From Pseudomonadales bacterium (GTDB lineage: Bacteria; Pseudomonadota; Gammaproteobacteria; Pseudomonadales; Azotimanducaceae): a stretch of DNA of 64,000 nt. Position 1 is the first letter of the stretch. Each line of letters starts with the position of its first letter. Made by a program: the position numbers and the translations under genes. Of the stretch, positions 10,257-53,308 are shown piece by piece. The notes under the pieces are model-generated. The model was not told the DNA's origin, made no database searches, and saw nothing but the letters and a program-made list of their open reading frames with translations. Where the stretch lies: positions 3,250,090 to 3,314,089 of the forward strand of contig OZ220484.1 in assembly GCA_965116165.1 (NCBI GenBank). Reading direction: 5' to 3'.

Positions 10257-11198
10257 CTACTCTCTCGGGCCCAGAAACCGCTCGCCATCGAAGTGGATCA
10301 GGTGGTCGGGCCTTTCACAGAGCCATACCTCCTCCGTCTCCCAGGCGATGTTTGTCATGTGCTGCCGGAATTCCCCAAAGTCTGGAAATGCGCTGACATA
10401 GACCGCGCCAGCCGGGCACGCCCTGAGCATGGTCTCTAGATCTACCATGCGTGTCGGAGTGACCGGACCATGGGACGTGACAACCTCGATCAGAAACAGC
10501 CAATTTCTGTTCGCGTCGTAGAGCACCACATCCGGCAGTTTGTCGTGCTCTGTGATCGGAATACTGAGATCGTTGAGACCTTTCCTGTCGACGAAAAGAT
10601 ACTTCTTGGCGGTGTCGCCCAGATAAAGCAGGCGCGACCCGGGGGCGAAACAGGGCGCAAACTGCTCGACGACCGCTCTCTGGACCTCATTGTGCCTGCC
10701 CGATGATAGCGAGAGCTCGAGCCCATCCGGAAGCGTGACCGGGATCATATTGCGATTGCGGCCTTGCGCATAACGCTCCACGAGTGCCCCCCGTTCCCGG
10801 CGGAACAGTTTTACGGCCGAGTCCCATTCGTCGTCGCCGTAGCGCCGAATGACATCCAGCGCGGCTTCCGTGACAGCGTAGTGGGTTTTCGGACTGTTGG
10901 TCGGAAGGTCCGGCTCGAACGGATTGTAGTCGGCAATGCTGCCTTGGACGAACTGATGGAGCACCTGACGTCGAAAAGTCTCGCGCGTATTCGGGGCATA
11001 ATCGGTTTGGTAGTGCTCTTTGAGATAATCCATGATGTCCTTGGTGACCGTACATCGCCGCCGCTCGGCGGTCGACCACGCGTCATTGGGCGTCAATCCA
11101 CAGAGCGCGATGAGCGTCATACCCGCCATCCGGTTGTACTGGGCAGGCGGCATCCCCAAGCCTTCGAGGATTTTCCGGGCCTCTTCGACATCAGCCAA
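10257..11198 (-). CDS. BsuBI/PstI-family type II restriction endonuclease
   Basis: 313 aa. N-terminal 'YAPNTRETFRRQVLHQF' and C-terminal 'KLPDVVLYDANRNWLFLIEVVTSHGPV' are as I recall for the BsuBI/PstI family. TTG start overlaps the methylase stop by 8 nt. Confidence 0.8.
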   Translation of the reverse strand: MADVEEARKILEGLGMPPAQYNRMAGMTLIALCGLTPNDAWSTAERRRCTVTKDIMDYLKEHYQTDYAPNTRETFRRQVLHQFVQGSIADYNPFEPDLPTNSPKTHYAVTEAALDVIRRYGDDEWDSAVKLFRRERGALVERYAQGRNRNMIPVTLPDGLELSLSSGRHNEVQRAVVEQFAPCFAPGSRLLYLGDTAKKYLFVDRKGLNDLSIPITEHDKLPDVVLYDANRNWLFLIEVVTSHGPVTPTRMVDLETMLRACPAGAVYVSAFPDFGEFRQHMTNIAWETEEVWLCERPDHLIHFDGERFLGPRE

Positions 11199-12842
11199 CG
11201 GTCGCTTCCGCCAACGCGAATGGAGCCATCATGCTTTCGACAAGCGCATCCAACTTGGCTACGGGGTCATCCAGACTTCTTGCCCGCCGTCCAAGTGTAC
11301 GGATCGTCTCGTGAGCCGGAAGCGGCATGGCGCGAAGCTCGGTGGCGCTTACCTGGGTGTTGCCGTTGACAGCGCGGAACCAAGTGTCGAGCAGACGGCT
11401 ATTGTAGAGCGCGGCAATGCCCCAGGCTTCATCCTCCGAGAGCGTGTCGCCGGGCCGGTGAACAAAATTGAGATGATTCTCTAGGCCGATGGCAGGAATT
11501 GCCGACTCCGCTGCAATCCAAGGAGCCGCCGTCAGCCGACGCGCTTCTTCCTTGGCGCTGAAGCGGCGCATGAGGACATAGTTTCTGTTGGGCACGAGAA
11601 GCGCTGCGGCACCGGCCCATTCGATGTACTCCGGTTTGTGCCGGCCGAGCGGCCAAGTCACCCGCATCGCACGCACATGGTTCATCCAGAGTAATGGCAC
11701 ATGGCTCTCCGGTACCCTACCTTCCTTGGCAACTCGTTCGATGGCCCGGAACGGCACAATCGGGCCGGTCGAGATATTCAGCCCCAAGCCGCCAAGAGTG
11801 GTCGGCCAGGAATCCACTAGGTCCAGAGCGCGGTCGTCTTCGTTGCAGACCGGCAGACGCAGAACCTTGTCTTTGGAAGCGAGATCAAGCATCAAGCTGG
11901 CGGGAAGCTCGCGCACCTCCGGCGCGTCGATATCCCCGACCCCAAGGCTCGACGAGATGACAACGCGTGAGCCAGCACCACGCTCGTGCCAGCGATCCAG
12001 ACGGATGCCGAGGAAAATTACATTCTCCTGAAGCACCTCGTCTCGGCGGAACGTGTCGCGCCGGGATGCGAATACATGGACGCGTCTCGGCAATATCTTG
12101 TCGAAGAATACGGTCCGGAAACGCCGGAAGTAGGGGCCAGAGGTGAAACTGCGCGGTGTGATGAAGACCAAGTCCCCGCCCGTCCGAAGCAGCGCCGCGC
12201 TAACCGCCATGAAGAGGGCGTAGATATTTGGCTGACCGTGCACTACCTTGGAAACGGCCACTGCCCGAGGATCGGATTTGGCGATCTTGAAGTAGGGGGG
12301 TTGGCGATGACGACATCGAAGGTTTCTTCCTCCGAACCAGAGGGGAACAGCCTGCTTGACTGCACCGCATCGGCGTTCGCGATGATGAAGTCCGTGGCTT
12401 CAATGCGAAAGTGGACAGGGACTCCGTGCCGTTTCTGGCACCACCCGGCGAGACAGTCGAGGACCGCCCACAGCGGCTTGATCAGGTCGCCGTCGACTTC
12501 GTAAGCGCTCAGATCGATTGCATTCGGCTTTGTCCGGCGAGACACGAGCGTCTCCACGGCCGCGCAGCACAGGATACCGGAGCCCGCGGCGGGGTCAAGA
12601 ATTCGCACCTTCCGTGCGACCGTCTTGACTTGCTCACTCATGAAGTCGGCGACGGGCACTGGTGTGAGGAACAGTCCACGGGCCTTCCTCTGCTGATCGG
12701 AAACCCGTGCGGCATACCACTCGCCAACCCGGCCCGCATAGTCGACTGGCCGCTCGTTTTCTCCGAACTCAGGTATATCGGAGCAACCCGGGACGGCTTT
12801 GGCCACCGGTGCCGTGCCCGCAACCTGGTTCAGGACAGGCAT
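11191..12842 (-). pseudogene. N6-adenine DNA methyltransferase (Eco57I/PstI-M type), split by a -1 frameshift at the NPPY motif
   Basis: ORF 12243-12842 has 'FLTPVPVADFM', 'ILDPAAGSGIL' and 'DVVIANPP'. ORF 11191-12261 continues as 'AVSKVVHGQPNIYALFM...FITPRSF'. The coding strand reads AAC CCC CCT ACT. One extra C in the C6 run (plus-strand G6 at 12295-12300) restores ANPPYFKIAKSDPRAVAVSKVV and a single ~550-aa protein. Confidence 0.8.
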
Positions 12843-25474: not shown

Positions 25475-25550
25475 GCCGGAATAGCTCAGTCGGTAGAGCG
25501 GCTGATTCGTAATCAGTAGGTCGGCGGTTCGAGTCCGCCTTCCGGCACCA
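25475..25550 (+). tRNA. tRNA-Thr (anticodon CGU)
   Basis: Hand-folded cloverleaf. Acceptor GCCGGAA/TTCCGGC, D arm GCTC-AGTCGGTA-GAGC, anticodon arm GCTGA-TTCGTAA-TCAGT (anticodon CGT), variable AGGTC, T arm GGCGG-TTCGAGT-CCGCC, encoded CCA. Confidence 0.93.
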
Positions 25551-26143: not shown

Positions 26144-26249
26144 GATGGGGACTTATATACATAAGTTGACATGCCACTATATATTGAGGCTTTAGTGGCG
26201 GGAAACCACCACATGTTGGGCTTTGTCAACTAATCGATATAATTCCCAA
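26144..26249 (+). repeat. Structured repeat family D, copy D1 (~106 bp)
   Basis: GATGGGGACTTATATACATAAGTTGACATGCCACTATATATTGAGGCTTTAGTGGCGGGAAACCACCACATGTTGGGCTTTGTCAACTAATCGATATAATTCCCAA. About 90% identical to the reverse complement of 37922-38024. Confidence 0.85.
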
Positions 26250-28049: not shown

Positions 28050-31000
28050 TTGCGGCGCGCGGCCTGCCGCGGCTGTCCGGGCGGGGCGCGAGCGCCTCGC
28101 GCGCGAACCCCTTGCCCCGTGTGCCCCCCCCCCCCCCCCCCCCCGAACGAATCCGGGCGCGGGGCTGAGCCGGTGGGCGCCCCCGGGAGAGCCGCCCGCC
28201 GCCTGAAGGCGGGACTCGCCGCTGCTCTTCTGCCGACCTTCGTCGCCACCCTCGCGCCCCAGGACGCGCAGGCGCAGGCCCCCACTCTTACCGCAACGCC
28301 GGGCGACGGGCAGGTCACGCTCAGTTGGACTCTGTCCAGCACCGGTGTGGGAACCAAGTGGGGGTACAAGATCAATGGCGGCGGATTTACCTGGGCTGGG
28401 ACGCCCCTCGCTATTCCAGGTTCCAACGCCGGCACCAGAGGCCACACGGTAACAGGCCTGACGAACGGAACCTCTTATCAGTTCATTGTCTACTTGCAGA
28501 CTGCGACCAATGCGGCGTACCGTCAAAGCAACCAGGTGAGCGCCACGCCGAATCCACCCACCGCCGGGGTGACGCTTTCGAAGACATCGCTGACGATGAA
28601 TGAGGGGAGCAGCGACACCTACACGGTGAAGCTGGACAAGGCGCCCACGGTGAACGTGACGATCACGGTGAGCGGCGCTTCGGGCGACGTGTCGGTGATG
28701 GGTTCGCCGCTGACCTTCACGCCGAGCAACTTCGGCACGGCGCAGACGATCACGGTGAGCGCGGCCCGCGACGGGGACACGACGGACGACACGGCAACGC
28801 TGACGCACGCGGCGTCGAGCACCGACACGGCCTACGGCGCCTCGCTCGAAATCGACGATGTGGACGTGACGGTGACCGACACGACGCCGACCTTCCAGCT
28901 GCTGACCGACCCGGCGGCGGTGACCGAGGGCACGGACATCAGTCTGACGGTGACCTCCGACAGGTCGATATTCGGCAACTGGCCGGTGCGCCTGACGCTG
29001 GCGGCCCGGAGTTCGAGCACTTTCACGGCGGCGGACATTGCCGGCACGCTGGGGCCGCGCGAGTTCACTGCGAACTTCGGCAGCACCAGCGCCTTCGGCT
29101 CCCCCGTCCCCGGCACGACGGGCACGGTGACCATCCCGACCAGCACCGACTCGGCCACCGAGGGCGCGGAGGCCTACCGGATCACGCTGAGCCAGAGGAC
29201 CACCTTCGTCAGCTACGCGGTCGGCACCGATGCGACCGCCGACGGCACCCTGAACGATGCGGCGGCGACCGGGCCGACCATCACTCTCACCGCCGCGCCG
29301 GGGGACGGGCAGGTGACGTTGTCCTGGACCTATACCAACGACGACGGGGAGGCTTTTGATCACTGGCGGTACGCGCAGAAGAAAGGCGGCGGAAGCTACA
29401 GCGGCCTGGGCGATGAGATTCCCGGCGGCAAGGCCATCCGAACGCACACCGTGACAGGTCTGGAAAACGGCGCCGCATACACTTTCAAGGTCACACGCGG
29501 AGTCACAAGCCCCCCACCTGTGAGGATCCAGACAACAGCACCTCCTTACTCCAACGAAGTCACCGCGACGCCGACGGCCGCTTCCGTTCCCGCCAGGCCG
29601 TCGGGGTTGTCGGCAACGGCGGGCAACGGGCAGGTGACGCTGACGTGGACCGACCCGGAGGACGATTCGATCACGAGGTATCAGGTGCGGCGGAGGAAGG
29701 GCAGCGACGCCTGGGGCGGCTGGACCGCCATCTCCGGCTCCGACGCCGACACCACGGCCCACACGGTGACGGGGCTGGACAACGACAGCGAATACCGCTT
29801 CCGCATCCGGGCGAGGAACGATTCCGGCTTCGGCGCGCAGTCGGCGGTGGTGACGGCCACGCCGACGGAGCCTGCCGGCACGGCGCCCGCCAAGCCGACG
29901 GGCTTTGGCGCGACGAAGGGCGACACGTGGATCTACTTGACCTGGACCAATCCGAACGACGCCAGCATCACCCGCTGGGAATACCAGCAGAAGACTGGGA
30001 GCGAGAACTACGGTTCATGGACACGGATGACGGGTTCCGGCGCGACCACGGTGAAGCATCAGATTACCGGTCTGACCAACGGCACGGTCTACAAATTCAA
30101 GATTCGTGCGGTGAACGGCAACGGCGACGGCGCGGCGTCGGACGAGGTGACGGCGACGCCGAATCCACCGACGGCGCCGGTGTTGACGGCAGCCACTTCG
30201 ACGACCAACCGGAATCTCACGCTCACCTGGACCCATGCCGGCTCGACCGCGGTCGATTACGTCGACGGCGGGGGCGCCAGCGCCCGCACCTGGTGGCAAA
30301 CGGGGCACCGGCTGAAGGGGTCCACCACCTGGACGGCGTACGGCGGGAACGTATCCACCGCGGGCGGCAATTCCCGGCGCACATCGTCGGCGACCCTCGG
30401 CCCCGCCACCTACCCGAACGGAGCATCGGTGGAGGTGGCGATTCGGGCATCGGCCGATTCCGATTTGCTGAACAGGGAGGGTGTCAAGGGCCCCTGGTCG
30501 AACGTGCGGACGGTCACCTACATGGACACCAACACCGCCGCGCTGACGTTTACCGGTTCGCCGGTGACGGTGGCGCCCGGTTCCACGGCCACCTACACGG
30601 TGGCGCTGACGAAGGCGTATGCGGGGACGCTGTCGATCGCGAGCGACGACACGTCGGCGGCGACGGTGAGTCCGCCGAGCCTGGCCTTCACCACCACCAA
30701 CTACAACACGGCGAAGACGGTGACGGTGACCGGGGTGGGCAACGGCACGGCGACGATCGACCACGCCTTCCGGCTGACGGGGGCCGCGGTGGATGCGATA
30801 CCGGACGCCGGCACGGTGGACGTGACGGTGGCCGCCGTGCCGGGCGTGACGGTCTCGCCGACCTCGCTGACGATCGACGAGGGCGGCAGCGGCGCCTACA
30901 CCCTGAGGCTGAACACGGCGCCGGCGGCGAACGTGACGGTGACGGTGGGCGGCGCCTCGGGCGAGGTGACGGTGGCGGGCTCGCCGCTGACGTTCACGCC

Positions 31001-32813
31001 GGCCAACCACGGCACGGCGCAGACGGTGACGGTCGGCGCCGGAGCCGACGCCGACACGGCCAACGACAGGGCGACCCTGACGCACACATCGGCCAGCACC
31101 GACAACGACTACGGCGCCGCGCTCGCCATCGACAGCGTCTCCGTGACGGTGAGGGACACGACGCCGGGCGCCCGGGGGACGGATCCGGCGGAGTCGCCGA
31201 CGGGCGGCATGACCTATCAGCAACTGGACGGCGCCGGCGGCCTGGCGCCCGAGCCGGTGGAGTACGCCCGGGAGCTGGTCGTGGTTCCGGCCGGCAAGAC
31301 GACCGTCAACATCAAGAGCCCGGTGGCCGCGGTGGCCACCGCCACCCGGCACCGGGTGGCGGCGGCGCTCGGGCGGCGCATCCTGGTGGACGAGTCGGTC
31401 CATGTCCGCCTGGCGCTGGGCGGGGGGATGGTGTTCGCCGAGGGGAAGAATGTCGGCGACATCGGGTGGCGCTGGTCCGCGAACCCCCTGAGGCCGCCCT
31501 CGTCGTGCACGATGGAGAATGGCGCGGCGTTCATCAATCCGGACCACGTCACGTCGGCGGGCAAGGCGATCGGGACATCCCTCGTCGCGGGGCGGGCGGG
31601 GGAAAGCGTCGCGGTCTTCCGGCTCGAAACGGGCGCGGACGACGATTTCGGCCTGGACCTCCCGAGCCGGGACGGGGGCAGACACCTTCCCCCCGAGGCG
31701 CGCGCCGTCGCCGGCGGCGGCCCGAAGTGCGGCACCCCCAATGAGCCCACGAGGATATTCGCCGACATCGCCGACCACCTGGCGGTGCCGGCGGGCGGGG
31801 GCGCGTACACGGCGGGCATCTCGCTGCACGGCGACGCGGACGACGCCCTGGCGGGCCGCAACGCGTCCGTGGCTCTGGGCGGCGCGGCCACCATCGTGCG
31901 GGTCGTCGACGGTCTGGACGCCGGGGTGGAGGCGGCGACCCAACCCGTTGTCGCGCACGTGGGCACCTCCCCGCAACCGTTCCTGTGGTTCCGGGACGCG
32001 GCCGCGGCCGGCGGCGTGACGGGCGCGGCGGTTCTGGGCTCGGCCAGGGCGACGATCGCGGGGAACAACCTCCACAATCCCACCACCGGCGGGATCGCCA
32101 CGGGGAGCGACCTGCTGCCCGACGGCAGCGTCAACCTCGCGGTTGAGGGGGACTTCTCGATCGGGGCGTTCAGCCTGGGGATTCCCGCGGACGCGGCGGA
32201 CCCGTCGGGGGTCTGCCCGGCGGCCGGCGCCGCGGGGTCGCCGGCGACGGGCAACCTGGCGCCGGCGGCCGGCGGCCCGCCGGACAGGGCGACGCTCGGG
32301 GGGCGGAACGCGGGGACGCACCATCTGTGCGTTCGGGTGGCCGCCGCGAACGGGGCCCCGATTCCGGCCGGGCTGTACCGCGGGACGGTCAGCCGCACCG
32401 GGGTCGGCGACGCCGACGAGACGCTGGCGACGGGTGTGATCGGCCGGATCCGGCGCAACGGGACGACGGCCCGGCTGACCTATCTGACCGCGTCGGGGAA
32501 GTACAACCAGCGCCTGATCATCGTCAACGAGGGGGCGCGCGACGCGAGGTACGACCTGGGCTCGCTGGTGACGGAGGCGGGGACGCGGGCGACGCCGACG
32601 GCGGCGGCGGTCGGCACGGTCCCGGCGGGCGGTCAGGTGGTGCTGCGGGTTTCGGACCTGGTCGAGTTCGCGGGTCCGCGTCGGCGGGCGTCGGCGACGC
32701 TGAGCGTGGTCGCGGCGCCGGGGGACATCCGGGTGGCGACGACCCAGGTGAACCTGCTGGACGGCAGCACGGACACGCTCCACATCCCGGTGCGCGGCGC
32801 CACGGTCAACTAG
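28050..32813 (+). CDS. Very large secreted/surface repeat protein (5 FN3-like domains, two Ig/Calx-beta-like ~105-aa modules, ~520-aa uncharacterised C-terminal region)
   Basis: Single 4.7-kb ORF with a Sec-type signal 'RRLKAGLAAALLPTFVATLAPQDAQA'. FN3-like units open with 'GDGQVTLSWT' (x2), 'GNGQVTLTWT', 'TWIYLTWT' and 'NLTLTWT', and contain 'HTVTGLxNGxxYxF'. Two similar modules lie at aa ~170-277 and ~930-1040. Start uncertain: TTG 28050 (reads through the C tract as Pro7) or GTG 28173 just before the signal peptide. Confidence 0.85.
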   Translation: MRRAACRGCPGGARAPRARTPCPVCPPPPPPPNESGRGAEPVGAPGRAARRLKAGLAAALLPTFVATLAPQDAQAQAPTLTATPGDGQVTLSWTLSSTGVGTKWGYKINGGGFTWAGTPLAIPGSNAGTRGHTVTGLTNGTSYQFIVYLQTATNAAYRQSNQVSATPNPPTAGVTLSKTSLTMNEGSSDTYTVKLDKAPTVNVTITVSGASGDVSVMGSPLTFTPSNFGTAQTITVSAARDGDTTDDTATLTHAASSTDTAYGASLEIDDVDVTVTDTTPTFQLLTDPAAVTEGTDISLTVTSDRSIFGNWPVRLTLAARSSSTFTAADIAGTLGPREFTANFGSTSAFGSPVPGTTGTVTIPTSTDSATEGAEAYRITLSQRTTFVSYAVGTDATADGTLNDAAATGPTITLTAAPGDGQVTLSWTYTNDDGEAFDHWRYAQKKGGGSYSGLGDEIPGGKAIRTHTVTGLENGAAYTFKVTRGVTSPPPVRIQTTAPPYSNEVTATPTAASVPARPSGLSATAGNGQVTLTWTDPEDDSITRYQVRRRKGSDAWGGWTAISGSDADTTAHTVTGLDNDSEYRFRIRARNDSGFGAQSAVVTATPTEPAGTAPAKPTGFGATKGDTWIYLTWTNPNDASITRWEYQQKTGSENYGSWTRMTGSGATTVKHQITGLTNGTVYKFKIRAVNGNGDGAASDEVTATPNPPTAPVLTAATSTTNRNLTLTWTHAGSTAVDYVDGGGASARTWWQTGHRLKGSTTWTAYGGNVSTAGGNSRRTSSATLGPATYPNGASVEVAIRASADSDLLNREGVKGPWSNVRTVTYMDTNTAALTFTGSPVTVAPGSTATYTVALTKAYAGTLSIASDDTSAATVSPPSLAFTTTNYNTAKTVTVTGVGNGTATIDHAFRLTGAAVDAIPDAGTVDVTVAAVPGVTVSPTSLTIDEGGSGAYTLRLNTAPAANVTVTVGGASGEVTVAGSPLTFTPANHGTAQTVTVGAGADADTANDRATLTHTSASTDNDYGAALAIDSVSVTVRDTTPGARGTDPAESPTGGMTYQQLDGAGGLAPEPVEYARELVVVPAGKTTVNIKSPVAAVATATRHRVAAALGRRILVDESVHVRLALGGGMVFAEGKNVGDIGWRWSANPLRPPSSCTMENGAAFINPDHVTSAGKAIGTSLVAGRAGESVAVFRLETGADDDFGLDLPSRDGGRHLPPEARAVAGGGPKCGTPNEPTRIFADIADHLAVPAGGGAYTAGISLHGDADDALAGRNASVALGGAATIVRVVDGLDAGVEAATQPVVAHVGTSPQPFLWFRDAAAAGGVTGAAVLGSARATIAGNNLHNPTTGGIATGSDLLPDGSVNLAVEGDFSIGAFSLGIPADAADPSGVCPAAGAAGSPATGNLAPAAGGPPDRATLGGRNAGTHHLCVRVAAANGAPIPAGLYRGTVSRTGVGDADETLATGVIGRIRRNGTTARLTYLTASGKYNQRLIIVNEGARDARYDLGSLVTEAGTRATPTAAAVGTVPAGGQVVLRVSDLVEFAGPRRRASATLSVVAAPGDIRVATTQVNLLDGSTDTLHIPVRGATVN
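28124..28144 (+). repeat. Homopolymeric tract, 21 consecutive C
   Basis: Counted directly: 7 C at 28124-28130, 10 C at 28131-28140 and 4 C at 28141-28144. By far the longest homopolymer I saw in the window (others are <=8 nt). Confidence 0.95.
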
Positions 32814-32907: not shown

Positions 32908-34191
32908 TCAATTTTGTTCCAAATCCTGCGCAAGGTATTTCCCCGCCACCCAATAGTGGTAGGCGGACCATATCTCCACCAGTCCACAAATCACCAGCGC
33001 ATAGCGCACGGATTCGTTGCCGAATCGGCCGCTCAGCAGGTCGGCGAAGAAGCCCACCGCAAAGGGGCCGAGGCCCAGGCCGATGATGTTGAGAATGAAC
33101 AGCAGCACCGCGGCGGCCAACGCCCGCATGCGCAACTCGACCAATCCCTGGGTTTGGGAAAAGGTTGTGGCTTGGTAGAAATTGCCGAACATGACCGGCA
33201 AGATCATGAGAATGAGCGCCCAGTAGGGGTTCGGCAGGAATAGGAGCAGCATGGAAAACGGCGTGATGGCCCCCAGTGCCACTGCCGCGACCCAGAGATA
33301 CCAGCGGCTGTCCCGCGCACCCAGGCGGTCTGCCAGATAACCGCCCCAGGCGATGCCTATGGCGCCGGGAATGCCCAACATCAAACCCAGCCAGGTACCG
33401 AGTTCGCCGGTTTGCATGTCGTGGATGCGGATGAAGAAAACGGGTATCCAGGCGATGAAGCCATAGCCGACGAAGGCGGTCAGCGCCCCCCCAAACGCCA
33501 TGTGCCGGAAGGTGCGTTTGCGCCACAGCAACGCAAAGGTGGCGAGGGCGGAAGGCATCTCGCCGGAATCCCGCCTACCCTCCGCGAACCCCCTGGTCGG
33601 TTCCCGCAACGTGAAGCGCACGACCAGCGCCAGCAACAGGCCTGGAATGCCCACGACGAAAAAGGCGGCACGCCAGCCGAAGAATTCGTTCATCCAGCCG
33701 CCGGCCACGAATCCGAAAAGGATGCCGAGGGGAATGCCCAGGGAATAGATGCCGAGCGCCGTGGCGCGCCGCTCCGGGGGATAGTGGTCGGCGATCATCG
33801 AGTGCGCGGGCGGGCTGCATCCGGCTTCGCCAACACCGACACCGATGCGCGCCAGCAGGAGATGCCAGAAATTGAGCGCCAGCCCGGATATTGCCGTCAT
33901 CGTGCTCCAGACGGCGACCGCCAGCGCGATCAGGTTGCGGCGGCTATGACGGTCCGCCCAGCGGGCGATGGGAATACCCAGGGTCGCGTAAAAGAGTGCG
34001 AAGGCGAAACCGCTCAGGAGGCCGAGTTGGGTGTCGCTGAGCCCGAGATCCAGCTTGATGGACTCCATCAGGATGGAGAGTATCTGGCGGTCGACGAAGT
34101 TGAAGGTATAGACCACCACCAGCACGCCCAGCGCATAGGCGCGGAATGACGGGGGTGCGCCGGTCTCGGTGCGATGCGCAACTTTTACCAC
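32908..34191 (-). CDS. MFS transporter (spinster-like subfamily)
   Basis: 427 aa, ~12 TM. 'VVYTFNFVDRQILSILMESIKLDLGLSDTQLGLLSGFAFALFYATLGIPIARWADR' is typical of the MFS_1/spinster-like N-terminus. Confidence 0.85.
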   Translation of the reverse strand: MVKVAHRTETGAPPSFRAYALGVLVVVYTFNFVDRQILSILMESIKLDLGLSDTQLGLLSGFAFALFYATLGIPIARWADRHSRRNLIALAVAVWSTMTAISGLALNFWHLLLARIGVGVGEAGCSPPAHSMIADHYPPERRATALGIYSLGIPLGILFGFVAGGWMNEFFGWRAAFFVVGIPGLLLALVVRFTLREPTRGFAEGRRDSGEMPSALATFALLWRKRTFRHMAFGGALTAFVGYGFIAWIPVFFIRIHDMQTGELGTWLGLMLGIPGAIGIAWGGYLADRLGARDSRWYLWVAAVALGAITPFSMLLLFLPNPYWALILMILPVMFGNFYQATTFSQTQGLVELRMRALAAAVLLFILNIIGLGLGPFAVGFFADLLSGRFGNESVRYALVICGLVEIWSAYHYWVAGKYLAQDLEQN

Positions 34192-34223
34192 GGGTTGCTG
34201 GCGCTTACACCCTGGGCGGACGG

Positions 34224-34559
34224 CTACTTCTTGCCCCTATCGCCCGGAACCGGCATCGGGAAGGGCGTGACGTTCCCGCCTGTGGTTTCGGTGACCTTGG
34301 CGATGCCTTCCTTCTCCACCTCGTCGATGCGAATCACGGCATGCATTGGGATAAAGCTGCGCTGCACCCCCTCGAACTCGGTGCGCAGCTTGTCTTCGCT
34401 GGGGTCGATAACGACCTTGGTGCGCTTGCCGAAGATGTAGTCCTCCACCTCGATGAACCCGTAGAGGTCGCTGGAGTAGATGTTGTGGGCATAGACCTCG
34501 TAGATCTGGCCCATGCAGTGGAACAGCACCTTGTAGATATGGGTTTGATTGTCGCTCAT
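34224..34559 (-). CDS. DUF1820 family protein
   Basis: 'YKVLFHCMGQIYEVYAHNIYSSDLYGFIEVEDYIFGKRTKVVIDPSEDKLRTEFEGVQRSFIPMHAVIRIDEVEKEG' closely matches my memory of the DUF1820 consensus. Confidence 0.8.
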   Translation of the reverse strand: MSDNQTHIYKVLFHCMGQIYEVYAHNIYSSDLYGFIEVEDYIFGKRTKVVIDPSEDKLRTEFEGVQRSFIPMHAVIRIDEVEKEGIAKVTETTGGNVTPFPMPVPGDRGKK

Positions 34560-34672
34560 GGGCTCTATATAGGTGCAACGGCACGGGGTTGCAACCCGTT
34601 GTGCGAGCTTAGGGGATGTGAGATTAGGAGGGTAGTCCCCGATTGTTTAACGAAGCAAAGCCGCCAAGCCAG

Positions 34673-36064
34673 TCAGCCCAAGGCCCTCGACAACAGCTTC
34701 GACAACCTCGGTTTGTAGTCGCTGTGGCGAGTCACGATATCCGCACAATCAACGTTTTTGATGTTCAGCGCCCCACATTCGATTGGACCGGAGCCGATGG
34801 CTTCGCCGAACCAAGGGTTGGCGACACGATACGGCTTGCGCAGTATCTGGTCGTTGCGCGAATAAAAGTTCCATATCGTACCGGATACCGCGGACGCCGC
34901 CTTTTCCCATTCCTCGGCGTTGCGGCGATCAACCGCCCCGCCGAACAGGAACACATCCTTGATGGACCCTGTCTTGGGTTTTTCTGCAAGATTCAGGAGA
35001 GTGATAAAAATTGTCCGGGCACCCAGGGAATGCCCCATCAAGGTCACAGCTTCTGCGTCGTAGCGAGCTAGCATATCGGCATTCATTGCACCGACCTCAC
35101 TGGCCTTGCGCAGGGCGATGTGCCAAGGGTTTTCGAATGGTATTTTCAGTACTTTGGTTATAGCGACAGCATCGCGAGGATTCTTTGGTGCCAAAATCTC
35201 AAACAACCTCGACATGTTTTTCTCGCCCGAGAGAAATTTTTCCACTTTGGAACGGCGTCCGCTTTCCCAAGTCACGCCGTAAGCGCTCGAATTCGGGAAG
35301 TATCCCGATGTTCCTCGCCGCCAATCATCGAATTTGTCGTCGTCCTGTTGACGAAAGCCATTTACAAACAACAAGCTGTCCTGCTTACCTTCACGCAGCC
35401 TATTGATTGCGTAATCCTTGACGGTGCCGAAATATGCCTGGGCCACCGATCCGCCAATATCGCTCCCGAGAGCCGCCCCGGTCACCCCTATGACTCCCAA
35501 ACCGCGCAACACAGCGCCGCCGCCCGCAGCGACGGCCCCTCCACCGATATAGGCGAGCGATGCGCTTTTCAGCGCCGCTCCGCTCAGCGTACGTATTGCT
35601 GTGCCGGTTGACGCGGTCCCCAACAGACCCATTGCTCCCAGCCTGGCGGCCAAAGCGGGCGCCAAGGGGAATGCCAGGGCAACTGGCACGGAAGCCAAGG
35701 CTAGAAATACAAGGATACGCTTGGACAGCTTCCGCATGTCTCTGGTTTCCCGTGTGAAGAACTCGTTCCATTCAACAAGGTCTCGTAGTCGGACAGCCAA
35801 TTTCTCGAATGATCGAATTTCACCTCCGTGCTCCGCACACCACATTTTTGCCGTAAGGCGGTTTTCATCTTTCTTCTTCCTCTTTGGAAAAACTGCCATG
35901 TGGAGGCACCCCGGGACACAGCAACGCACCGTGGACGCCGAGCAATGTGTGCATTGGTGCTTCTTCCTACCGGGCTTTCTGAAAATCCCGTTTCTGTCAT
36001 CAATGGCTTGATGGACTGTCTTGAGCAAGCATTTGGAGCAATAAGCGGTAATCTCGTTGTTCAT
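34673..36064 (-). CDS. Zn-ribbon / glycine-zipper TM / DUF726 (TMCO4-like) alpha-beta serine hydrolase
   Basis: 463 aa. N-terminal Cys clusters (CSKC..CTHC..CCVPGC..C..H). Gly/Ala-rich TM region ('GGGAVAAGGGAVLRGLGVIGVTGAALGSDIGG'). Nucleophile elbow 'LMGHSLGAR', then 'NFYSRNDQIL' and 'KNVDCADIVTRHSDY', mirroring the Ser/Asp/His blocks I recall for DUF726/TMCO4. Confidence 0.75.
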   Translation of the reverse strand: MNNEITAYCSKCLLKTVHQAIDDRNGIFRKPGRKKHQCTHCSASTVRCCVPGCLHMAVFPKRKKKDENRLTAKMWCAEHGGEIRSFEKLAVRLRDLVEWNEFFTRETRDMRKLSKRILVFLALASVPVALAFPLAPALAARLGAMGLLGTASTGTAIRTLSGAALKSASLAYIGGGAVAAGGGAVLRGLGVIGVTGAALGSDIGGSVAQAYFGTVKDYAINRLREGKQDSLLFVNGFRQQDDDKFDDWRRGTSGYFPNSSAYGVTWESGRRSKVEKFLSGEKNMSRLFEILAPKNPRDAVAITKVLKIPFENPWHIALRKASEVGAMNADMLARYDAEAVTLMGHSLGARTIFITLLNLAEKPKTGSIKDVFLFGGAVDRRNAEEWEKAASAVSGTIWNFYSRNDQILRKPYRVANPWFGEAIGSGPIECGALNIKNVDCADIVTRHSDYKPRLSKLLSRALG

Positions 36065-36167
36065 GTTGTTTGCTATCCGATTATCAACACAATTGGGGCC
36101 GTACTATCGGTCAATGCCGTTGTGGTGCGCTTGTGGAGAAAAAATAAAGTGTGGATAGGCGGGTAAC

Positions 36168-37736
36168 TCACGGTGCCTGCCGATGGGTCCGCTTGGACAC
36201 ACCGGCGGAAAACGATCCGCCGGACACGCCCGATTCGTCGCCATCGCTGTTGTTCTCCAGACGCTTGTCGGGCCACGCGAACGCTGGCCAGGCACCGCGC
36301 GGCGTGGCTCCGCCGATGTCCGGCGCACCCGCGTCCGCGCCCGCCTCAACTAGCGCTTGGGCCAGATCGACCCATTGGCACTCTGCGGCAATGTGCAGGG
36401 GCGTCCGTCCTAGGGCATCCCTCGCCTCAAGATCGGATCCGGCGGCCATCAGGCGTCTCAGGTCATCAACTTGTCCGAGGGTTGCCGCAGTGTGCAGGCC
36501 GGGGTCTTGCATCGCCCTGACGGCGGCGTACCGAACTAGTGATGGAATCGGGCAGTCGCAATGCCATCCCCGGCTTTGCAATTGCAGAAATCCCAGTTCG
36601 ATCAGGGCGTCGCGCAACGTTTTTGACGCCCGTTCGTCCGCCGGGCCCGCCTCGCCGATGATCCGGATGGCGTCGCCTGGTCTGACAGGGCTGGCCGCGT
36701 CGATGGCGGCCATGGCGCGTCCCACCCATTGGTCATGGTCCAGCACGACCCCCTGGTAGCGCCCCCCGTAGTAGGAATCTCGCGTCTTGGCCGCCACCCG
36801 CCGCACGGCGTCGATATCCACTCCTTCGAGCGAAGCCGGATTTCTGGACACGGCGAGCGCCTCGGCCAGAGCGCCAAGAAATCCGTTGGTGTGCATCGGC
36901 CAGCCCTGGGTATCGAGGATCAGTGCGTCGGACCATGGTTCCCCGAGGGCATCGGGCGCGTCCACCCCGAAATGTCGCAGCCAACTGTCAGACAGGTCTC
37001 GGCACTCGGCGGGGGAAAGACGCTCCAGGACATGAATGCACTTTGCCTCGTTCGAGTAGCGGGAGATGTTGATGCCCTCCCGCTGCAAATGGCTTTGTAG
37101 ATAACCGAGACCCGCGAACACGGGCAGGATGGGGATATCGCCGACACGGCCCAGATGCAGGGACCGCAGAGCGTTGGCCGGCGGGGTGGACGGTTCCACC
37201 ATTTGCGCCTCGTCGACCATCACGATGATCGGGGCTGGAAACGCAGCCGCCCGGTCCTGCCGCAGAAGCCTCCGCGACCCCGCGACGGTCGCCTGCTCCG
37301 CATCCTCGCCGATAGCCTGATCACCTCCCGACAGATAGGTGGCGAGGGCACGAATGATGGCACCGCCCCATTTCTCCAAGGCGGATTCTGGCAGCGTCTG
37401 GCGAATGACCCTGCCTAGGCTCTCGACGTTGCCCAGCGCATCGACATTGAGGTTGACGCAGATCGGATTGTGCGGTCCGGGCGTGCCGCTCCCCCATTTT
37501 TCCTGAAGATGCCTGAGCAGCGCGGTTTTACCCGCCCCCGGTGCCCCCTGCACCAGGCGGGTCAGACCGGGGTCGTTCGCGTCGATGTCGCCGGACAGCC
37601 ACATCTGGTGGGCGAGCGTGGCGGCATTGCCGATGTCTTGGATAACCGCGTTCCGTCCGACAAAAACCGGAGGTTGGGCGCGTGCTCCCTTGTTGGCATA
37701 TTGGGTCAGGGATACGCGCCGCTCCTCATCGTTCAT
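36168..37736 (-). CDS. ORC/STAND-like P-loop NTPase with C-terminal ankyrin repeats
   Basis: 'FVGRNAVIQDI', Walker A 'GAPGAGKTALL', Walker B 'IIVMVDEAQ', 'LERLSPAECRDL' (AAA_16/Arch_ATPase-like layout). C-terminal ANK repeats 'GLHTAATLGQVDDLRRLMAAGSDLEARDALGRTPLHIAAECQWVDLAQALVEAGAD'. Start set at ATG 37736. Confidence 0.75.
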   Translation of the reverse strand: MNDEERRVSLTQYANKGARAQPPVFVGRNAVIQDIGNAATLAHQMWLSGDIDANDPGLTRLVQGAPGAGKTALLRHLQEKWGSGTPGPHNPICVNLNVDALGNVESLGRVIRQTLPESALEKWGGAIIRALATYLSGGDQAIGEDAEQATVAGSRRLLRQDRAAAFPAPIIVMVDEAQMVEPSTPPANALRSLHLGRVGDIPILPVFAGLGYLQSHLQREGINISRYSNEAKCIHVLERLSPAECRDLSDSWLRHFGVDAPDALGEPWSDALILDTQGWPMHTNGFLGALAEALAVSRNPASLEGVDIDAVRRVAAKTRDSYYGGRYQGVVLDHDQWVGRAMAAIDAASPVRPGDAIRIIGEAGPADERASKTLRDALIELGFLQLQSRGWHCDCPIPSLVRYAAVRAMQDPGLHTAATLGQVDDLRRLMAAGSDLEARDALGRTPLHIAAECQWVDLAQALVEAGADAGAPDIGGATPRGAWPAFAWPDKRLENNSDGDESGVSGGSFSAGVSKRTHRQAP

Positions 37737-37834
37737 CGTCGAGCTCCCTCCCGCGGGCCTTGGGTTCTTGCGAGCACCGTGGCGTGCTAGGGAAGCGGCC
37801 AGTGCGGATTCATTCTTGATCGGTAGTGTCGCCG

Positions 37835-37910
37835 CTTGACATTTGCATGAACCGAACATTGTGCGAGCCCCGGCTCGGCGGCATTCGAAAAGTCAAATTG
37901 ATGCAACACC
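37835..37910 (-). repeat. MITE/REP-like family A, copy A3
   Basis: CTTGACATTTGCATGAACCGAACATTGTGCGAGCCCCGGCTCGGCGGCATTCGAAAAGTCAAATTGATGCAACACC is the reverse orientation of A7. Confidence 0.8.
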
Positions 37911-37921
37911 TCTTGATCCAT

Positions 37922-38024
37922 TTGGGAATTATATCCATTAGTTGACAAAACCCAACATGTGGTGATTTCCCGCCACTAAATCCTCAATATATAGTGGTAT
38001 GCTAACTTATGTATAAGTCCCATC
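37922..38024 (-). repeat. Structured repeat family D, copy D2 (inverted relative to D1)
   Basis: TTGGGAATTATATCCATTAGTTGACAAAACCCAACATGTGGTGATTTCCCGCCACTAAATCCTCAATATATAGTGGTATGCTAACTTATGTATAAGTCCCATC. Its reverse complement aligns with D1 with about 8 mismatches and 3 gap positions. Confidence 0.85.
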
Positions 38025-38481
38025 CATTTTCGTGTTTGGAAGCCAGCAAATGAATAATATGCCCGTTGGCTTTGCAACACACGCCCAATGCCCAACAGCG
38101 GGCCGCCGTTTATCTGGTTCCGACACATTTGGCTCTGCGCAACCGACCCTTCCACTGCCCCATGAGTCTCACTAGTGCGCCGTCTGAAAAATACGCATAC
38201 GATTCATCCTGTTCGCGTCAGATCGTAATCATTTAATTTTAATGGGTATTTTTGCATATAGATCAATGCCGATTGGGCGGCGAGTTAATCGGACGGTACA
38301 ATAGATCCGCGTCTGAAAGACCCCGGTCGAGTGCCTTCAAACAATCGAAGATGGCCCCTCTTGGTCTCAGATCCCCCAGCAGGTCGCGGGACTTTTGCCC
38401 CAGACCACCAAACCCGCACATCAACTTTTATATCCCACTGTAGTAAATTTCGGCCGACCGAAACCCCGAGAGGCCCAACCG

Positions 38482-39834
38482 TTGTCAAAACACGGCCGCA
38501 ACCGTCTTTTCATTAAGACCCACGGATGCCAGATGAACGAGTACGATTCGGCGCGCATGGCGGATGCGCTGCGGGAGACCCATGGTTACGAGTTGGTCGA
38601 GTCGGCGGCCGAAGCCGATCTGATATTGCTGAACACCTGCTCGATTCGGGACAAGGCGCAGGCCAAGGTATTTGATCAGTTGGGCCGTTGGCGGCCGCTA
38701 AAGAAACGCAATCCGGAGCTCTTGGTCGGTGTCGGCGGTTGCGTGGCGAGTCAGGAAGGAGCCGCGCTCACCGATCGCGCACCCTTTGTCGATATCGTCT
38801 TCGGGCCGCAGACGCTGCACCGTCTGCCGGAGCTGGTTGAGCGGGCCAGGGTGCGCATTGCCGGCCCGGTGGTCGATGTCAGTTTTCCGGAAATCGAGAA
38901 GTTCGACCGGCTGCCGCCGCCCGGTGCCGATGGCCCGAGTGCGTTTGTTTCGGTCATGGAGGGTTGCAGCAGGTACTGTACTTTCTGCGTGGTGCCCTAT
39001 ACGCGCGGCGAGGAGATGAGTCGGCCCGTTGCCGATGTCCTGCGCGAAGTCGAGCAACTCGCGGCCCAGGGTGTTCGGGAGGTGAACCTGCTCGGCCAAA
39101 ACGTCAACGCCTATCGGGGGCCGATCGAGGGCGACACGGCGGATTTGGCGGAGTTGATTCACTATGTCGCCGCTATCGACGGCATCGAGCGCATCCGCTA
39201 TACCACCTCGCACCCGGTGGAATTCAACGAAAACCTGATACGGGCCTATGCCGATGTGCCGGCGCTGGTCGATCACCTGCACCTGCCGGTGCAATCCGGT
39301 TCGGACCGCATCCTGGCGGCCATGAAGCGCGGGCACACGGTGCTCGAATACAGGTCGAAGATTCGCAAGCTGCGCGCGGTGCGCCCCAACATCAGTATCT
39401 CCTCGGATTTCATCGTTGGCTTTCCGGGTGAAACCGACGCGGATTTCAATGCCACCCTGGCCTTGATCGAGGAAATCGGTTTCGACCTATCATTCTCCTT
39501 TATCTACAGCCCGCGGCCCGGCACGCCCGCGGCGAGTATGCCGGACCCGACCGAGTTGACCGTCAAGAAACACCGTCTCGCCATTTTGCAGAGCCGTTTG
39601 CGCAAGCAGGCCGCCGCGATTGCCGAAGGTATGGTGGGCAGTCGCCAGCGCGTGTTGGTGACCGGCCGGTCAAAGCGGGGTGAGGGGCAACTGCAAGGAC
39701 GCACCGAGAATAATCGAGTGGTCAATTTCCCGGGCGACGACAAAAGCCTGGTCAATGCCTTCGCCAGGGTGCGGATTACCGAGGCCCTGCCGAATTCCCT
39801 GCGCGGCGAGCTTGATCGAGTGTCGGGGGGTTGA
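38482..39834 (+). CDS. miaB: tRNA-2-methylthio-N6-dimethylallyladenosine synthase
   Basis: '[15 protein letters not shown]', radical-SAM '[15 protein letters not shown]', C-terminal TRAM. Start proposed at TTG 38482 (GAGG upstream). The ORF-track TTG at 38395 adds 29 non-conserved codons. Confidence 0.9.
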
Positions 39835-39837
39835 CGA

Positions 39838-39900
39838 GGTGCGAACCGAACGGTACGCGAGTCTCGGCTCGGCGGAATTCGGGAAGTCAAATTGATACAA
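39838..39900 (-). repeat. MITE/REP-like family A, partial copy A4
   Basis: GGTGCGAACCGAACGGTACGCGAGTCTCGGCTCGGCGGAATTCGGGAAGTCAAATTGATACAA. Starts 4 nt after the miaB stop. Confidence 0.75.
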
Positions 39901-39909
39901 TTCCCGTCA

Positions 39910-40239
39910 ATGATGAGCGATAATTCGTCTGGGTCCGAATATCCACCGAAATGGGGCATTGCCTGCCAAGGCTGTGCGCTTCGGTTTGCGGCGCGGAACT
40001 TTTGCCACGGGCCACCGGGTGATGACCCCCCCGGGCGGCGGCTGAATCTGGTATCGGGTCTGTGCCTGGGCATGCCGCTTGCCGCGTTGCTGGTTGGTGG
40101 CTGGATGGCCGAGACGCTGGTTGGTGGCGCCTGGTGGGCTATTGGCGGTTTTCTTGGCGCCTCGGCCGCCGTGTTCGGTATGCGGCGTCGCATGGATCTC
40201 TGGTTGCGAGAAGAAGTTGAAGTGAGGGCTAGGCTATGA
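39910..40239 (+). CDS. Hypothetical 2-TM membrane protein, possibly a truncated RseC/MucC-like protein
   Basis: 109 aa. 'CQGC' followed by two Gly-rich TM helices ending 'GGFLGASAAVFGMRRR', reminiscent of the RseC C-terminal half. Its stop overlaps the degP start (ATGA). Weak call. Confidence 0.35.
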   Translation: MMSDNSSGSEYPPKWGIACQGCALRFAARNFCHGPPGDDPPGRRLNLVSGLCLGMPLAALLVGGWMAETLVGGAWWAIGGFLGASAAVFGMRRRMDLWLREEVEVRARL

Positions 40240-49371: not shown

Positions 49372-49439
49372 CATTTGCGCGAACCCAACGGTACCTAGGT
49401 CTTGGCTCGGCGGAATCTGAAAAGTCAAAGTGATACACC
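49357..49439 (-). repeat. MITE/REP-like family A, full copy A6
   Basis: GGTGTATCAGTTTGACATTTGCGCGAACCCAACGGTACCTAGGTCTTGGCTCGGCGGAATCTGAAAAGTCAAAGTGATACACC. Imperfect terminal inverted repeats GGTGTATCAnTTTGAC. Overlaps the relA 3' end. Confidence 0.85.
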
Positions 49440-53222: not shown

Positions 53223-53308
53223 GGTGTTGTATCAATTTGACTTTTCGGATTCCGCCGAGCCGAGGCCCGCGCACTGTTCGGTTCGTGCAAATGTCAAACC
53301 GGTACACC
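53223..53308 (+). repeat. MITE/REP-like family A, full copy A7 (reference copy)
   Basis: GGTGTTGTATCAATTTGACTTTTCGGATTCCGCCGAGCCGAGGCCCGCGCACTGTTCGGTTCGTGCAAATGTCAAACCGGTACACC. Confidence 0.85.

Follow-up and report, generated by a model that had tools for sequence, protein, structure and literature searches.

Described members of the DUF726 family (PF05277) include the eukaryotic proteins TMCO4 and yeast Mil1, the latter being a predicted lipase that requires its catalytic serine (PMC4751606). A secreted archaeal alpha/beta hydrolase containing the DUF726 domain, Cinquedea, was reported as a bactericidal phospholipase, and Pfam assigns its homologues to DUF900 or DUF726 (bioRxiv 10.64898/2026.06.10.730825). 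No experimental work on the bacterial DUF726 family was found in a literature search. Avs, bNACHT and the two-gene sensor-plus-effector systems follow a general logic in which an NTPase with a repeat-type sensor acts beside a membrane- or lipid-directed enzyme. A pair of genes recalling both groups is located in a 64,000-nucleotide stretch of the genome of a Pseudomonadales bacterium of the Azotimanducaceae (GenBank assembly GCA_965116165.1, contig OZ220484.1, positions 3,250,090 to 3,314,089). (This whole stretch is called the window, and coordinates without a locus name refer to it.) Gene 1 (36168..37736, minus strand) encodes a 522-residue NTPase with an ankyrin tail (NTPase-ANK), gene 2 (34673..36064, minus strand) encodes a 463-residue protein in which a zinc-ribbon and a glycine zipper precede a DUF726 alpha/beta serine hydrolase, and the pair, hereafter the cassette, lies between a DUF1820 gene and miaB. 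An earlier note on this DNA had proposed that the two genes form a sensor-plus-effector module, and had offered as the alternative that two unrelated proteins merely sit side by side. The alternative is the better supported: the two genes of the cassette are probably independent accessory units of one gene each, brought together incidentally in the variable slot between miaB and DUF1820.

Comparison with the described systems indicated that both genes are new members of already known kinds. Gene 2 matches the bacterial DUF726 family over its full length, and has the zinc-ribbon, glycine-zipper and hydrolase parts in the same order as the homologues from Vibrio, Burkholderia and metagenomes. 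The GxSxG-type Ser-Asp-His triad is shared with Mil1 (PMC4751606), whereas the bacterial zinc-ribbon is absent from the eukaryotic members. Cinquedea, which shows that a DUF726-type hydrolase can attack membranes (bioRxiv 10.64898/2026.06.10.730825), has the same domain but is archaeal and secreted, lacks the zinc-ribbon and the glycine zipper, and is likened to gene 2 by its domain label only. A helical/glycine-zipper module is common to gene 2 and component A of PDC-M09, of whose profile about one third was matched, but the PDC-M09A-like proteins, unlike gene 2, have no hydrolase. The PDC systems of PADLOC are unpublished, untested candidates (PMC11811056), and a literature search found nothing on PDC-M09. 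Gene 1 shares with the STAND and ORC/Cdc6-like NTPases (AAA_16, ATPase_2) an FVGR-type motif, Walker A and B, a helical/winged-helix extension and C-terminal repeats, and it has an invariant GWP that may correspond to GxP. It differs from them in its sub-threshold AAA_16 and NACHT scores, in having two ankyrin repeats only, and in the lack of a fixed partner and of a fused effector, none being found in the 522 residues by Pfam or in the AlphaFold model. With Avs and bNACHT only the general logic is shared; gene 1 gave no Avs or NACHT match in PADLOC, and the pair is not conserved.

Lack of co-occurrence and separate histories of the two genes

The two open reading frames (ORFs) are co-oriented and separated by 103 nt (36065..36167), as had been described in the earlier note. 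Co-localisation of the families was examined in two sets of loci. The NTPase set consisted of 81 loci, 80 of them obtained by scanning a genome collection with the NTPase alignment and taken with flanks of up to 10 kb, and one by look-up. The DUF726 set consisted of 86 loci obtained from look-ups, plasmids and a metagenome scan; 44 of these included at least 1.5 kb of upstream sequence, and 45 at least 1.5 kb of downstream sequence. When the NTPase loci were searched by tblastn with 16 DUF726 queries, no DUF726 gene was detected within the flanks of any of the 81. Similarly, 40 NTPase-family queries detected no NTPase domain beside DUF726 in any of the 86 loci of the reciprocal set, where the sole cross-match (in locus L090) was to ankyrin repeats only.

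All-against-all clustering of the neighbouring ORFs revealed no conserved partner gene for either family, nor did Pfam and PADLOC censuses of the immediate neighbours (142 for DUF726 and 148 for the NTPase). The NTPase neighbours were mostly metabolic genes, and also comprised three methyltransferases, two DruA and two SoFic-like genes, the latter with strong PADLOC matches (best E=1.6e-106). Among the DUF726 neighbours a minority was of defence or mobile type (five NERD/UvrD helicases, methyltransferases, Z1, PLD and a DDE transposase), and three encoded MMR_HSR1 small GTPases. The contexts of the closest relatives were unrelated. For the closest DUF726 homologues (63-67% identity), the neighbours in L083 were transposases and toxin-antitoxin genes, those in L084/85 a tyrosine-recombinase trio together with KfrA, and those in L082 unknown genes, while the L086 copy was carried by a conjugative Vibrio plasmid. 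The neighbours of the closest NTPase-ANK homologues (40-58% identity) varied from an AAA_35 gene (with MmeI a few genes off), an S15 peptidase and Cmr genes to a SoFic-like gene, a UvrD-like helicase, a transposase and a TonB receptor.

The histories of the two genes also appeared separate at the DNA level. Homology to relatives extended over 34662-36115 only for the DUF726 gene and over 36267-37737 only for the NTPase gene; since it stops near the edges of each ORF, the genes constitute two separate single-gene units. The GC content was 0.547 for the DUF726 gene and 0.651 for the NTPase gene, in agreement with the earlier impression that composition was heterogeneous and the NTPase gene richer. 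The corresponding values at third codon positions (GC3) were 0.62 and 0.74, those of the flanking genes being 0.74-0.90. In all four relatives checked, the GC content of the DUF726 gene was below that of its own locus. Three NTPase-ANK paralogues (including P0122 and P0128), but a single DUF726 match, appear to be present on the source contig. It is because of these results, together with the variability of the slot described below, that an incidental juxtaposition is favoured.

Several observations weigh against this interpretation. Co-orientation, the 103-nt gap and the absence of any recognizable terminator (a scan of the minus strand of 36065-36167 found neither a terminator-like nor a promoter-like site) mean that the genes may be co-transcribed in the source genome. 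In L090 (3853-7531) two tandem genes for 355-aa ankyrin-repeat proteins lie directly upstream of a DUF726 gene and are co-oriented with it; no further case of ankyrin and DUF726 genes side by side was seen. In five of about ten NTPase-ANK contexts a co-oriented gene follows downstream at a distance of up to approximately 300 nt (DUF726, an S15 peptidase, a SoFic-like gene, a UvrD-like helicase and a 97-aa unknown), and such downstream enzyme genes could be read as belonging to a sensor with swappable effectors. Fusions of DUF726 with NTPase domains (P0323 and P0418, described below) and the three MMR_HSR1 neighbours hint that some DUF726 hydrolases are NTPase-regulated. Finally, very close relatives were thinly sampled.

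Most of these points would also fit a lineage-specific two-gene module, in which NTPase-ANK senses a phage or host trigger through its ankyrins, switches its nucleotide state and activates the DUF726 hydrolase, resulting in membrane damage and an abortive-infection-like response. In a broader form of this model the NTPase-ANK sensor would work with whatever effector lies downstream (DUF726, Fic, UvrD-like or peptidase). The arrangement of the genes (co-oriented, 103 nt apart, no terminator) is compatible with such a module, several NTPase-ANK homologues have a co-oriented enzyme gene just downstream, DUF726 is found fused or adjacent to other NTPases, and the glycine-zipper module matches the PADLOC candidate PDC-M09A. 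One such case is L004 (2394-4974), where the NTPase-ANK homologue overlaps the downstream SoFic-like gene by 20 nt, and where the ATPase gene possibly forms an operon with the Fic gene, which encodes a known single-gene defence protein. However, we consider such a module unlikely. No co-occurrence was found in 167 loci, the outcome that the earlier note itself had named as speaking against its proposal. The genes downstream of NTPase-ANK are inconsistent (in L003, L005 and L174 there is none), SoFic on its own is a stand-alone defence gene, and the neighbours of the NTPase family are mostly metabolic. Differing composition and separate single-gene homology units also speak against a module, as does the lack of a PADLOC match of either protein to a validated defence family.

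The DUF726 gene has the behaviour of a mobile unit of one gene, and mobile or defence-type genes are often close to it. It might be asked whether gene 2 acts by itself as a defence, addiction or toxin element, e.g. an abortive-infection lipase held inactive by the zinc-ribbon, gene 1 being irrelevant. We regard this as possible but doubtful; it is compatible with an incidental juxtaposition. The movement of the lone gene into mobile or variable regions (marked by a transposase, toxin-antitoxin genes, an integrase trio or a conjugative plasmid) is as expected for such an element, and its neighbours include the five NERD/UvrD helicases, DNA methyltransferases, and Z1 and PLD domains. Moreover, the membrane module is common to gene 2 and the candidate PDC-M09A, and bacterial killing through phospholipase activity is reported for the related hydrolase from archaea (bioRxiv 10.64898/2026.06.10.730825). 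On the other hand, genes of defence type make up only a small share of the neighbours, roughly 10% of the 142 in an uncorrected count, PDC-M09 is only an untested candidate with 116 of 330 profile positions matched, and no match in phage or viral collections was found that would suggest an arms race.

The ankyrin-tailed NTPase and the DUF726 hydrolase

The features that the earlier note had read from gene 1 (its nucleotide-binding motifs, a winged-helix-like middle and at least two ankyrin repeats) were all borne out by Pfam, alignment and AlphaFold. The motifs begin at residues 25 (FVGR), 64 (GAPGAGKT) and 170 (IIVMVDEAQ, with VMVDEAQ at 172). In an alignment of 22 family members, which also backs the start of the gene at 37736, residues G67, G69, K70, D175, E176 and the segment G278-W-P-M-H282 were invariant. 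The NTPase core with the FVGR, Walker A and Walker B motifs comprises approximately residues 20-240 (37017..37679, minus strand). It is followed by a helical lid and winged-helix-like region with the invariant GWPMH (approximately residues 241-405; 36522..37016) and by the two ankyrin repeats (approximately residues 410-482; 36291..36509), after which comes a disordered tail. The Pfam matches above threshold were Ank (E=4.8e-8) and Ank_2, at residues 414-478. The scores of AAA_16 (28.1 versus a threshold of 32.6) and NACHT (22.3 versus 26.7) were below threshold, and AAA_22 was just under. PADLOC yielded a weak mad8 match (E=1.7e-6) over the P-loop region and a PDC-M72A match over the ankyrin region.

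The AlphaFold model of the gene 1 protein, which had a mean predicted local distance difference test score (pLDDT) of 87 and a predicted template-modelling score of 0.85, consisted of an ATPase core, a helical/winged-helix part, two ankyrin repeats (helices within 413-464) and a disordered tail (residues 494-522, pLDDT <50). The best Foldseek matches in the PDB were the archaeal Walker ATPases PAB2304 (2qen) and SSO1545 (2fna), ORC/Cdc6 proteins, CED-4 and plant NLR resistosomes. Matches to 1w5t (ORC2), 2v1u and human ORC4 had E-values of about 1e-5 to 1e-6 and template-modelling (TM) scores of 0.3-0.5 with high root-mean-square deviation. Judged from the model, the resemblance to ORC/Cdc6-type AAA+ proteins (core, lid and C-terminal winged helix) thus appears to be at fold level only. 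An hhGRExE-like motif precedes the P-loop, and Walker A and Walker B are present; these are the motifs by which Leipe et al. reportedly defined the STAND NTPases in 2004. The GWPMH segment at 278-282 sits at the start of a helix (280-295) and, as judged by sequence, is GxP-like. Since motifs, model and structural matches agree, "STAND/ORC-like NTPase with ankyrin tail" is a fair description of the gene 1 protein.

The gene 1 family was nearly confined to sponge-associated metagenome-assembled genomes (MAGs; for the origin of such assemblies see PMC12859430), in which it occurred in many diverged copies per genome and occasionally in tandem arrays. At least six loci were found in OZ220471.1, a genome of 2.76 Mb, and five each in OY729418.1 and OZ241882.1. 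Members of the family were seen at loci L008-L081 (e.g. L011:4439-18064 and L047:9989-12674), and the tandem arrays contained up to three copies in 21 kb. Paralogues had 65-90% DNA identity, and their likeness was limited to the ORF plus about 100 bp. Solo STAND/ORC-like ATPases thus seem to have undergone a lineage-specific expansion, and the multi-copy dispersal of the family argues against a role as replication initiator. The possibility that it represents a mobile element or a helper ATPase (of an insertion sequence or transposon, IstB/TnsC type) was rejected in view of this identity range, of the restriction of similarity to the ORF and about 100 bp, and of the absence of an associated transposase. 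No plasmid copy of the NTPase was found. A phage-borne form was also discarded, as the only viral match was an ankyrin match in a giant-virus MAG and the PHROGs matches were to ankyrin only.

The sponge association of the NTPase family bears on two further explanations. In one of these the NTPase-ANK proteins would be sponge-symbiont-specific, diversifying solo NLR-like sensors that cooperate with whatever enzyme gene comes directly downstream, and which at this locus recruited a horizontally acquired, membrane-anchored DUF726 lipase as killing effector to give a new, lineage-restricted defence or host-interaction module; this we consider quite improbable. In the other, both genes would encode eukaryote-like host-interaction proteins of a sponge symbiont, acting on processes of the host cell. 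Besides the occurrence of almost all NTPase relatives in sponge-associated MAGs, such a role could be inferred from the ankyrin repeats of gene 1, from the fact that DUF726 is best known from eukaryotes (PMC11878206), and from a 1587-aa ORF of the window (28050-32813) in which fibronectin-III-like repeats were noticed by eye. It is nevertheless highly unlikely, as neither protein has a signal peptide or recognizable secretion signal, the N-terminal zinc-ribbon and the internal hydrophobic helices of gene 2 fit a resident membrane protein, and DUF726 proteins are spread widely among bacteria (Vibrio, Burkholderia, actinobacteria) rather than being symbiont-specific.

For gene 2 the zinc-ribbon, the hydrophobic glycine-zipper segment and the DUF726 core proposed earlier were all recovered, by the match to PF05277, by alignment and by Foldseek. 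The Pfam match had an E-value of 4.6e-39 and a score of 134.8 bits (cut-off 22.6), residues 166-460 aligning with positions 31-339 of the 343-position profile. The N-terminal region (residues 1-80; 35825..36064, minus strand) contains the Cys/His ligands C9, C12, H18, C38, C41, C48, C53, C76 and H79. These were invariant in 33 full-length homologues, as were the zipper glycines G143, G146, G154, G162 and G174 and the catalytic triad S346, D405 and H447. The hydrophobic segment and Gly/Ala-rich zipper occupy residues 113-210 (35435..35728). A Kyte-Doolittle plot showed one strong peak (2.46) centred at 121-139 and a weaker glycine-zipper region to about residue 205. The alpha/beta-hydrolase core (34676..35422) carries the motifs GHSLGAR (residue 344, with Ser346), YSRNDQIL (401, with Asp405) and RHSDY (446, with His447). 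In the AlphaFold model (pLDDT 75) the beta-strands of the zinc-ribbon had pLDDT values of 86-94, residues 130-202 were of low confidence, and the core adopted an alpha/beta hydrolase fold, for which Foldseek found esterases and lipases as matches (dienelactone hydrolases, monoacylglycerol lipase and CalB).

The PADLOC match to PDC-M09A (E=1.3e-16) extended over residues 85-207 of gene 2 and positions 110-225 of the profile. The same profile was matched nearly full-length by two small proteins (P0411 and P0435). A search with the N-terminal 215 residues retrieved 930 representative proteins; of ten that were checked with Pfam, seven were positive, all for DUF726, and the remaining three (about 320 aa) had no Pfam match. 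Among the proteins checked, two were fusions: P0323 combines a LeoA/dynamin-like GTPase with zinc-ribbon, glycine zipper and DUF726, and in P0418 DUF726 is fused to a sigma-54/RtcR-type AAA+ domain. In the public annotation gene 2 (protein P0001) is N-terminally truncated to 354 aa; the 463-aa ORF adds the zinc-ribbon, whose conservation is evident from alignments of both protein and DNA. The DUF726 gene of L084/85 was likewise called short (377 aa). DUF726 genes also occur on Vibrio, Rhodococcus and haloarchaeal plasmids. A phage-borne DUF726 was rejected, there being no match in INPHARED phages or IMG/VR. By sequence, gene 2 is an ordinary member of the broad bacterial family annotated as "DUF726 domain-containing protein".

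By analogy with Mil1 and the archaeal DUF726 phospholipase, and because of the esterase/lipase fold and the invariant triad, gene 2 most likely encodes a membrane-associated esterase or (phospho)lipase. Its zinc-ribbon, probably cytoplasmic, precedes the strongly hydrophobic helix and the Gly/Ala zipper, which may anchor the protein in the inner membrane and perhaps mediate its oligomerisation. The C-terminal hydrolase would then most likely cleave ester bonds in membrane lipids via Ser346-Asp405-His447; both this lipid substrate and the membrane topology are inferred. The gene spreads by horizontal transfer as a lone unit. Gene 1 represents one paralogue of a lineage-specific, multi-copy, diverging ATPase family typical of sponge-associated bacteria. 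The most likely role of its product is that of a nucleotide-dependent switch whose tail binds protein, the winged-helix and ankyrin parts presumably binding a macromolecular partner.

The variable slot between DUF1820 and miaB

In three relatives (L170-172) miaB and the DUF1820 gene are direct divergent neighbours, 117 bp apart. In the closest relative (L168/169) the slot is filled by a different gene coding for 269 aa, and the downstream MFS gene is common to this relative and the window. Since L168 holds another gene at this position, the slot takes varying cargo. The 269-aa protein (L168:7132-7941) had no Pfam match; by eye it is outer-membrane beta-barrel-like, with the C-terminus ...GVELSW. 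In blastn comparisons with L168-L172, window positions 32930-34596 and 38499-39812 aligned and nothing between them did, and gene maps were consistent with this (the segment without counterpart is 34597..38498). Because the relatives have either a 117-bp slot or another gene there, and 34597-38498 does not align, sequence comparison confirmed that the pair fills a variable slot, i.e. that it is an insertion between DUF1820 and miaB, as the earlier note had suspected.

The flanks of the slot are conserved. The DUF1820 gene on the left (34224..34559, minus strand; Pfam E=1.5e-41) has 87% nucleotide identity to L170-172, and homologues of its protein were 91-93% identical. On the right, miaB (38395..39834, plus strand), which diverges from the cassette and contains the Pfam domains UPF0004, Radical_SAM and TRAM, has 76-78% nucleotide identity to L168-172 from 38499 onward. 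The region between 34560 and 38400 contains no ORF for an integrase or transposase, no tRNA gene lies beside the cassette (the only one in the window is at 25475), and no direct or inverted repeat pair bounding the cassette was detected. A classical island or integrative element was rejected on these grounds (no integrase, no tRNA target, no flanking repeats). An Rfam search of the spacers gave tRNA-Thr as the sole match and no structured RNA family.

The 660 bp that separate gene 1 from the divergently transcribed miaB (37737..38394) are AT-rich (about 49-51% GC) and contain two dispersed intergenic repeats, at 37836-37910 and 37922-38015. These are presumably the repeats (termed A3 and D2) by which the earlier note had the pair bounded upstream; they are indeed present on that side of gene 1, but do not form a repeat pair enclosing the cassette. 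A single sigma-70-like site was seen in this upstream region; it is weak and lies on the minus strand inside one of the repeats (38015-37986). The repeats belong to two dispersed families of 75-94 nt with 87-93% identity, some copies being inverted; other copies are at 26156-26249, 53223-53297, 39865-39896 and 49404-49434. They are probably of the REP (repetitive extragenic palindromic) or MITE (miniature inverted-repeat transposable element) type. Synteny with the relatives ends just after miaB (39835-40235), where they have miaB-phoH-ybeY(-lnt) and the window has genes for a DegP-like protease and lepA. This junction carries a partial copy of a dispersed repeat. Minus-strand ORFs at 10257-12842, about 22 kb from the cassette, were restriction-modification-like by eye (Eco57I-type methyltransferase-like); they were the only defence-type genes noticed in the window in an inspection by eye.

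If the pairing were functional, it would represent a new sensor-effector combination and would provide the first assigned role for bacterial DUF726 proteins. As found, the locus illustrates that two accessory genes in one variable slot can mimic a "system". Two by-products emerged from the analysis: a mobile single-gene hydrolase combining zinc-ribbon, glycine zipper and DUF726, and a family of STAND/ORC-like ATPases that has undergone strong expansion in sponge-associated bacteria and is diverging there.

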